From: Escherichia coli
GTDB taxonomy: Bacteria > Pseudomonadota > Gammaproteobacteria > Enterobacterales > Enterobacteriaceae
DNA: 64,000 nucleotides
Assembly: GCF_003334785.1 (NCBI RefSeq)
Contig: NZ_QOWV01000002.1
Direction: 5' to 3' (one strand)
Made by a program: the position numbers. This document shows positions 50,101-53,100 of this stretch, piece after piece (within the stretch, counting starts at the first letter, position 1; every line of letters starts with the position of its first letter).

Positions 50101-53100
50101 AGCGCACTAATAACCTCATCGGCTGCCTCAATAATTTTCAGCGCTTGTTCTCTGGTAATAGTGGTCATTTGTTAATCCTCAAAACTTTATGCCCGGGCGC
50201 AAAAGCACGCGTTTTGTCTTTGCTTATTCGCCACCCGTCTTTACGGGCCTCTTTTGCACAGCCAGCCCATGACGTACCTATATACTCACCGAAGTCTGGC
50301 GTCTTATATTTGCCATCTGTACACTGGAGGCAATCACAATAGAGATGCATGGTGTAACTTGCAGCGATAGCCATATCACTCTCCTTTGATGCGAATGCCA
50401 GCGGCGCGTGGCACATTAACTTCCACGATGCGCACAGTTGGTTTGTACATCTCAATCGCTGTCAGCCAGTCAGCTCCTGTCATGCGCTTTTCCGCATCGC
50501 CATTACCCATCCCACTCAATACCATGACAAGTTCAACCTAAACGTCCAAACATCAGTGGTTCTTGATGGCATTAATGGCCTTACAGTTTATGCGGATAAT
50601 GATGTTGAATTTAATACTGATCATCCTGTCTACAGAGAAAGAGTAGTATTTGGTGTGTTTAATGGGAAAAATAATACATTTAAAGGATTTAACTGGAATA
50701 GTAACTTTACAGACTACAGTATATCTCCTACTGATACTGAGCATAAGATACAAGAACACTGGAAAGGTTTTGTGTTTGAAGGTTGTTCTTATAATAGCGT
50801 AAGGAAAAATAATGTTAATGCCTGCCATGTTTTCGTGCTGGCTGATAACATCAATCTATCAACAAATCTTCAGAATAAAAATATTCAAGTGATTGAAAAC
50901 AAACTTAAATATGTTGTTAATTATTGTTTTCTTTCAAGAGCTTTGGAGTGGTATGTTTTTGACAAGAATGAAGTTTCTTTTCAAGGCAGAAAGTGGCATA
51001 CGTTTGGTGAGGCAGCAGCGCCAACAACACAAACAAAGCATATTCGCATATGCGACAACAAATTTACTGATCAGATTGCTCAGCAAGCATGCATAACACC
51101 AGGACCACATATCGAAAGTGGATTGATCAGTGGAAACTTCTGCAAACGGCATTACGGAATTTTCATTGAGAATGGTAGCACCTCAAATCTTATTATCACT
51201 AATAACACCAGTATTAGTACTGGTGAAAGGGATGATACTGCTCATATTCTTCTTGTTGGTGAAGTCGATGACCAGCCTATAGGTAACTCACCACATTCAA
51301 ACGTTTTAATTTCTAACAATATGTTTCAAGGAGGAGGAGAGTCCATCAGAGAATATAATACTGGAGTTTCTTTACGAACAGGATTCAGAATTATTAACAA
51401 TCAGATGGTTGACTGTAAGCCTCCTGCAATTACAAACCAATCATTTATCGGTCTTGAGTTCATAGGCAACTACCTTGTAGCACCAACAGATTTCCCTGAT
51501 CTGAGATTAGGAGGTCAGCATACAGTCATCAAAGATAACACACTGATTGGTGTAAGAATAAGAGCGAGAGATCTTGGTTATACAGTCATTGATATGAGTG
51601 TTACAGAAAATGCATTTAGGGCTAACTCTTTGGGGGATAGCTATCCAGCACTCATAGACTTCACTGAATTTACAGGATTAGTTGCAAAAGAAAATGATGT
51701 ATCAGCATCTCATTTCACCAATGTTATTGTACTTCCAGATAACTGCAATATTGCTGGGTTTAGATATCTAGGTATTACCGAAGGTCTATTAGACAATCCA
51801 TCAACTTTGTATGGTTCTAAACTACAATGTAAGCTTGGAGATATTGTATATAATAGAGAGCCATCTATATATCAAAATAAACTTTGCTGGACGTGCGTTG
51901 ATTCATCATCAAAAACATTTGGTTCTGTAACCGTAGCAATATAAATAAATGGCCCCATAATCGGGGCCTTATATTTATTCAATAAATTTAATTATTTTGT
52001 TTTTTGCTTTATCCCACACCAAAGCAGCACCAGATTTCGATAGATGAACTGCATCAGAGTATATGAATTGATAATCATTAGTCATCGTTATGCATTTACC
52101 ATCTTTGCAAAGATAATCGTATGGGTCAATAAATAGAACGTTATTATACCCATTTAGTGCACTTCTTATGGCTGAGTTCATTCGTTTGTTGAATGTATCT
52201 TTGTCGTCTGTACTCAAATATCTTGTGCATACTAGCGGTAGGTATGATGGTCTATTGACACATTTTTCTACACCGCCAACACCATCTGTGCCAGGAGGGG
52301 CCCCAAGGATTACCACTTTTTTATTATTTAAAGCAGCTATATTATTTTTAATATTATTGATGCTAAAATTAATAAATTCATTTTCATCATTGAATTTCTG
52401 TTGGTTACCCTGCGGATCACTTACCATTCCTTCATATCCTATCCACCGCATCCCAAAAATAACAGGTACATTAAATTTGTTCGAATAATCAATAGCAAAG
52501 TTCAGTCTTTGCTGGCACTTTGGATCAGGAAGTCCTGCGTAGAACGTTGTATAATTACGCGAGAAAAAACAACCATCATTCAATGATGTAATGAATTTAT
52601 GACCTTGAGAATTTACATCTATTGCATGGGCATATTGCCTTGCAAAGCTGTCACCCATAAGCACAGCTGATACTTTTGATGCCGTCTTATCTCCAATTAT
52701 ATGCGCTCCAGCATAGTACCCATTTCCACCATATTGTTGCAGATGGAACTCCCCTGAATTATTCATTTTTTGTTTAAAGTACTCGTTGACTCGGAAGGAG
52801 TACCCATTATTTTTATATATAATATGAGATACCGATAAAACACTAATAAAAACGATTGAAAAAGAAACTGCCATTTTGTTGATTGAAGATAGATTAATAC
52901 GTCTAAACTTGTTCTCAATAAAATAATAACTCACATAAGCCAGAAAAATAGAAACGGATACTATTGATGCTTTTTCGAGCGTATTGATCGGTCTGAAAAT
53001 GTAATATTTATAGAATACTAAAAGAGGCCAATGTATAAGATATACAGAGTATGAAACTATGCCAATGCTAACAAATAATTTATTTCTTAATAAGTATCCT

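Follow-up and report, generated by a model that had tools for sequence, protein, structure and literature searches.

Tailspikes of P22-like temperate phages bind, and usually cleave, the O-antigen of their hosts. In Escherichia coli K-12, the deletion-decayed P22-like element KplE1/CPS-53 lies at argW, bounded by a 16-bp att repeat; its gene order is taken to be intS at one end and torI at the other, beside dsdC, and it presumably keeps gtrABS (yfdGHI) together with tail-fibre fragments. Receptor-binding modules are swapped horizontally among Kaguna-, Kayfuna-, and Lederbergviruses, and the tailspike type of a prophage tracks the O-serogroup of its host (PMC10408124). Here, a 64,000-nt stretch of E. 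coli DNA (contig NZ_QOWV01000002.1; referred to below as the window, whose coordinates are used throughout) was analyzed, in which another island at argW carries a 462-codon open reading frame (ORF; 50556..51944, plus strand) called from a GTG start. This ORF is very probably the dead, 5′-truncated tailspike remnant of a P22-like (Sf6/HK620-type) temperate phage integrated at argW. It is an ordinary gene remnant and not a new gene.

Among 5,426 complete E. coli genomes, only 7 gave a DNA match to the ORF; five of these 7 (LR-64-2, VE-F10, JKHS016, OZ121069, and AST198) contain the whole 6.6-kb island at 100% identity. In E. coli 2017-02-2CC, DNA that is 99.6% identical to window 50503-54213 encodes a 733-aa "phage head-binding domain-containing protein", adjoined downstream by the acyltransferase WP_021544677.1; the window frame represents the 3′ 65% (codons 255-733) of this P22-like tailspike gene. 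Residues 1-113 of the full-length protein match the Pfam family Head_binding (PF09008; E 5e-65). For the 462-aa product, no match was obtained in Pfam-A, Head_binding included (the copy scanned was without PF27114), none in NCBIfam, and only a single spurious one (E 0.5) among PDB sequences. Since the head-binding domain is absent from the remnant and present in the 99.6%-identical gene, the window copy is a fragment of a member of the P22-like tailspike family, not a functional member. The first sign of a C-terminal fragment was the match to PHROG 24092 ("tail fiber"; E 3.8e-82), in which residues 6-447 align with the end of the profile (positions 491-926 of 939). In an exact-sequence look-up, the 462-aa and 733-aa proteins fall in one 90% cluster, and full-length E. 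coli forms were located on roughly 30 contigs.

The point at which the gene was cut can be assigned to within three nucleotides. Homology to every full-length copy begins abruptly at window 50503, and minus-strand matches to ead/Ea22-like genes, which occur in >1000 E. coli genomes, stop at 50505. When the window was aligned with an intact ead locus (L010) and with the tailspike locus of 2017-02-2CC, the ead side could be followed up to ...CATCGCCA-TTA, and the tailspike side resumed from TTA-CCCATCCC..., with the truncated ead/Ea22-like early gene (minus strand) joined to tailspike codon 254/255. Homology to a near-identical, longer gene thus breaks off abruptly against unrelated DNA at 50503-50505, as in a gene remnant, and the 254 N-terminal codons of the parent are absent from the island.

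A comparison with other E. coli argW islands, proposed in an earlier note on this DNA as a way to the full-length gene, produced near-identical 733-aa copies at the same site. Three of these (L011, L013, and L014) lie in P22-like prophages at argW/yfdC, in the order P22 coat, gp4, gp10, tail needle, gp14-like, gp7, gp20, gp16, mnt, arc, ant, and the 733-aa tailspike, followed by a 653-aa AT3+SGNH acyltransferase, a 385-aa integrase, yfdC, mlaA, yfdF, and fadL. Contexts were fetched for one full-length form (P0125) with 10 kb upstream of the tailspike, so that only the late end is shown complete. Window 50503-57600 aligns with all three without gaps and collinearly, at 98.8-99.3% identity. The same arrangement is found at the homologous site in a Salmonella enterica prophage (L003), and in all four prophages the tailspike gene closes the late operon: it follows gp16 and the immI genes mnt/arc/ant and precedes the O-antigen modifier, int, and att. 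Of this order, the downstream half is retained in the window. The succession of tailspike, O-antigen modifier, integrase, and att, in which the earlier note had recognized a P22/Sf6-like genome end, recurs without alteration in the P22-like prophages of both E. coli and Salmonella at this site.

These observations suggest the following course of events. In the parent phage, the head-binding domain (1-113) of the 733-aa tailspike would dock the trimer to the tail hub, and the β-helix and C-terminal domain (~249-733) would bind, and probably cleave, the host O-antigen. By a single illegitimate deletion at the TTA shared by both parental sequences, the early-left ead/Ea22-like gene was then fused to the tailspike gene and the rest of the phage was lost, a segment estimated at ~35 kb if whole P22-like genomes are taken as a guide. 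On one side, torI and three small early genes survive; on the other are the 3′ part of the tailspike gene, the acyltransferase, and intS, and an att site is left at either end. The tailspike 3′ end would have been kept merely by lying between the acyltransferase and the deletion endpoint.

That the frame was once coding is evident from its length: at this base composition, 480 codons would stay open by chance with a probability of ~2e-16, excluding a chance frame. The ORF has 35.9% G+C, and its product consists to 40% of N, T, S, G, and I, with N alone at 10%. The signals for its expression appear to have been lost with the 5′ part. The GTG "start" is the Val-272 codon of the parent tailspike, the 30 nt 5′ of it (GACAAGTTCAACCTAAACGTCCAAACATCA) contain no AGGAGG-like or Shine-Dalgarno motif, and a promoter scan of 48800-50556, in which the overall site count was below that of shuffles, returned no sigma-70-like plus-strand site 5′ of the ORF; native start, ribosome-binding site, and promoter are all missing, as is typical of gene remnants. 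The ORF converges on the acyltransferase gene across a 30-bp gap containing a hairpin that is predicted to be a terminator common to the two genes. Among the features listed in the earlier note, the 462-codon frame, the GTG without a Shine-Dalgarno sequence, and the convergence on the acyltransferase were all confirmed, as was the existence of a long ATG-free run; this run, however, was put at about 270 codons, and an ATG first appears in frame at codon 256. The missing N-terminal head-binding region that the note described agrees with the Pfam results above.

The start of the remnant is called differently among public annotation pipelines, at 50556 (462 aa) or 50655 (429 aa). The exact 462-aa product was found on 178 contigs and a 429-aa form on 63; initiation at the GTG that comes next in frame, codon 34, would give a product of the latter length, and this form is probably the same remnant called from there. 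Discordant start calls are consistent with the lack of a genuine start site, and the "hypothetical protein" WP_062873411.1 (462 or 429 aa) deserves the label of 5′-truncated tailspike pseudogene.

The AlphaFold2 model of the remnant (predicted local distance difference test, pLDDT, 92.2; predicted template modeling score 0.91) is a right-handed parallel β-helix without a close solved relative: Foldseek returned the same fold class with low template modeling (TM) scores, and all structural alignments to known folds are at 9-14% identity. In its predicted structure, the remnant has the β-helix receptor-binding domain that characterizes P22-like tailspikes, and the initial reading of the repeats as a tailspike-like β-helix is borne out both by this model and by homologues that are phage tail proteins. 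To P22 gp9, Sf6 gp14, and the HK620 tailspike there is no detectable sequence similarity, and identity in structural alignments is 10-12%; unlike these proteins, the window copy is without residues 1-254 and unable to attach to a virion. In the full-length model (pLDDT 85), a head-binding region of low confidence (1-117) and a small conserved domain (~119-215) precede an α-helix (225-237) at the usual N-terminal cap position, with the first helix rung at ~249. The deletion point falls directly 3′ of this predicted N-cap helix, indicating that the remnant consists of the β-helix body without its cap and of the C-terminal domain. The receptor-binding family as a whole is without a solved structure or a close solved structural neighbour.

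In a tblastn search against phages, the remnant matched tail fibre/tailspike genes of lytic Kagunavirus, Vectrevirus, and Kayfunavirus coliphages, and the PHROG 24092/PF27114 module of such phages (vB_Eco_ORH_001, 536P11, phiEB49, and ACG-M12) aligns across the whole remnant at 34-57% amino acid identity. In the lytic coliphages, which are functional, the N-terminal anchor of these proteins is a different one, for example PF18668 or that of a 940-aa format; in contrast, the window module is fused to nothing and sits inside a decayed prophage. PF27114 (Phage_tail_beta) is precomputed on all close homologues of the remnant. These include proteins of 87-88% identity in Citrobacter and Morganella, the exact E. 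coli proteins being clustered under a Citrobacter representative in the homologue listing, and the S. enterica tailspike homologue has 82% amino acid identity. The acidic residues that are invariant in the family alignment are all retained in the remnant; E338, D368, E423, and E476 (numbered as in the parent) are invariant. Together with the three O6 hosts described below, such residues give indirect evidence of a putative endoglycosidase (or deacetylase) activity of the parent homotrimer on the host O-antigen. A literature search for this receptor-binding family or for a tailspike specific to O6 returned no paper; the report on oac1b (PMC3630932) concerns a different prophage remnant, and PMC10408124 and PMC11990801 supply general background only.

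The intactness of the frame is accounted for by its age. The remnant and the intact copies differ by only 5-6 nucleotides in 1442 nt (2-4 of each kind, synonymous and nonsynonymous, according to which copy is compared), and polarization with the Salmonella gene assigns about three changes to each lineage (2-4 private). As 4.1% of possible single substitutions create a stop, 3-6 substitutions would leave the frame free of stops with a probability of 0.78-0.88. The open frame is thus explained by the recency of the deletion (0.4% divergence), and selection would not be needed to account for it. Of the two possibilities offered in the earlier note, a very recent truncation or an unrecognised start, it is thus the truncation that agrees both with the 733-aa copies and with the junction.

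The other possibility, that the gene is complete and uses a hidden upstream start or programmed recoding, draws on the 66 further codons 5′ of the GTG over which the frame remains open, to the stop codon at 50355-50357. These 66 codons contain no ATG, GTG, or TTG, the DNA left of 50503 is the reverse complement of an ead/Ea22-like gene that is unrelated to any tailspike, and the N-terminal codons of the parent are not found elsewhere in the island; this explanation was rejected and is given practically no weight. The same applies to an origin as the C-terminus of a non-phage β-helix protein (for instance, an adhesin, an autotransporter, or a secreted glycanase), since all sequence homologues are phage tail proteins with either a P22 head-binding domain or a PF18668 N-terminus and the full-length gene occupies the tailspike position of P22-like prophages. 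More has to be said about a truncated protein that is made from the GTG or an internal start and is functional, either as a free O6-binding or O6-cleaving β-helix or as a dominant-negative subunit that co-trimerizes with the tailspikes of superinfecting or resident P22-like phages and poisons their assembly. The frame is intact and annotated as a coding sequence (CDS), the exact product is widespread among contigs, and the β-helix body, the C-terminal domain, and the family-invariant acidic residues are kept entire; moreover, JKHS016 carries a second P22-like prophage, and the receptor-binding domain of its tailspike shares 49% identity with the remnant. However, such identity would be low for heterotrimer formation, the N-cap helix of the β-helix is deleted, neither a promoter-like site nor a Shine-Dalgarno sequence nor the native start is present, and with no signal peptide or lysis genes seen, a cytoplasmic product would not reach lipopolysaccharide; the slight divergence fully accounts for the intact frame. 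A functional fragment is thus considered very unlikely.

Several points nevertheless weigh against a dead remnant. Weak translation from the GTG at 50556 may occur, and the NCBI Prokaryotic Genome Annotation Pipeline (PGAP) as well as other pipelines annotate a CDS there; the 462-aa form is on more contigs than the full-length E. coli form, hinting at retention, although this excess is explained by clonal sampling. The 2-4 private substitutions are too few for a ratio of nonsynonymous to synonymous rates. It is highly improbable that a low-level, head-less, and cap-less fragment acts as a decoy or dominant-negative factor against O6-specific P22-like phages, or as a free O6-glycan binder; if it did, its wide presence in an O6 clone (at least 178 assemblies) would reflect selection and not just recency. 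Given the lack of promoter, ribosome-binding site, and native start, and of the head-binding domain and β-helix cap, the remnant is most likely neither expressed nor functional.

As for the specificity of the parent tailspike, O6 wzx/wzy genes were present in all three carrier genomes checked, with the same alleles in the remnant carriers JKHS016 and LR-64-2 and different ones in 2017-02-2CC, which carries the full-length gene. The recorded hosts of lytic phages with a homologous receptor-binding domain include CFT073 and ATCC 25922, and Kagunavirus 536P11 also matches, its host being inferred from the phage name to be strain 536. All three strains are taken to be O6, with differing K types. 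With every checked carrier O6, the parent tailspike probably targeted the O6 O-antigen. Recognition of a capsule or another glycan is the unlikely alternative: Vectrevirus relatives often target capsules, as do Kagunavirus relatives (PMC11990801), and homologues at 87-88% identity exist in Citrobacter and Morganella, which speaks against O6 as well. Against a capsule stand the two separate O6 lineages of the carriers, the lytic-phage hosts that presumably share O6 and not their K types, and the classical O-antigen specificity of P22-like tailspikes paired with O-antigen modification genes (PMC10408124). The assignment to O6 is tempered by its basis in three genomes from two lineages and in phage-host serotypes that are assumed. 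A family of probable O6 specificity would have possible use in typing reagents for O6 (extraintestinal pathogenic E. coli) or in phage engineering.

The coordinates of the features of the island are collected in Table 1. A 16-bp direct repeat (ATGGTGTCCCCTGCAG) at 48912 and 55448 bounds the 6.55 kb, and the layout is that of a KplE1/CPS-53-type element: integration at the argW 3′ end has duplicated the att core, and intS, next to argW, marks the attL end, with torI at the opposite, attR end, beside dsdC. Both are deletion-decayed P22-like elements; unlike K-12 KplE1, the window island, at only 6.55 kb, has kept an acyltransferase of the AT3-SGNH type together with a 3′ fragment of a tailspike gene. 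With its two att sites, intS, and torI all intact, the island may still be capable of excision. The three early-region ORFs had no NCBIfam match.

Table 1. Features of the argW island and of the deletion junction (window coordinates).
Feature	Position	Strand	Description and basis
att core copy (ATGGTGTCCCCTGCAG)	48912..48927		dsdC/torI end; exact 16-bp direct repeat of 55448-55463
torI (excisionase-like, 66 aa)	49001..49201	-	ORF; PGAP 'response regulator inhibitor TorI' in identical JKHS016 locus
Three small early-left-operon ORFs, hypothetical (55, 213, 69 aa)	49259..50374	-	PGAP CDSs of L001 mapped onto window
ead/Ea22-like gene fragment	50376..50504	-	N-terminus lost; left side of deletion; PGAP pseudogene note; aligned to intact locus L010
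Deletion junction	50503..50505		3-bp TTA microhomology of both parental sequences; three-way alignment, Blast endpoints agree
5′-truncated tailspike gene	50505..51944	+	Codons 255-733 plus stop of 733-codon P22-like tailspike; β-helix body and C-terminal domain
Bidirectional hairpin	51951-51968	both	G+C-rich, T-runs on both strands; terminator-like site in the 30-bp gap
Acyltransferase, intact, 653 aa (Acyl_transf_3 + SGNH)	51975..53936	-	ORF; Pfam families on equivalent gene in L003, L011
intS prophage integrase (385 aa by PGAP)	54130..55287	-
argW tRNA-Arg(CCU)	55449-55523	-	ARAGORN; second att core copy 55448-55463 at 3′ end

Other, independent deletion derivatives of the same phage type were also observed. 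At argW, L012 (Logan SRR32134339) has a deletion from a replication gene into gp7, and at the torS/torT site of 2017-02-2CC (L002), a deletion extends from a toprim/replication gene to just upstream of the tailspike, with int truncated. The tailspike-acyltransferase end is retained in each, so that repeated decay spares the same prophage end. The second P22-like prophage of JKHS016 (L007 7808-14451, outside the window), which is partly decayed, lies between sbcB and dacD; its full-length 727-aa head-binding tailspike is followed by a 367-aa acyltransferase and gtrABC. In total, JKHS016 has two tailspikes with receptor-binding domains of a single family, and its O-antigen modification modules number three, two in the second prophage and one at argW.

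The acyltransferase of the window island differs from the parent-prophage copies by 1 nt in 1962, and the same accession, WP_021544677.1, is assigned to it in the identical JKHS016 island and in 2017-02-2CC, an independent O6 lineage. Divergence is distributed unevenly over this end of the prophage: intS differs from the integrase of the L011/L013 parent prophages at 37 of 1158 nt (3.2%), compared with 0.05% for the acyltransferase, and the match to 2017-02-2CC breaks off at 54213, within the 3′ end of int, which suggests a possible mosaic recombination boundary between acyltransferase and int. For the acyltransferase, NCBIfam gave only a weak, sub-threshold match to SucT. The two-domain Acyl_transf_3 + SGNH architecture of about 650 aa is that of OafA/OafB-type O-antigen acetyltransferases, with which the window gene also shares its location in a prophage, adjoining a tailspike; it is taken to be of this type and not of the short Sf6 Oac type. 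The acyltransferase is probably the O-antigen-modifying cargo of the island and under selection. If the tailspike was O6-specific, the enzyme would O-acetylate the O6 antigen and thereby block superinfection, and such lysogenic conversion of the O-antigen is a plausible reason why this prophage end persists. With the exact junction and the parent prophages known, stepwise prophage decay of the P22-like kind, with retention of the O-antigen acyltransferase, can be followed at this locus.
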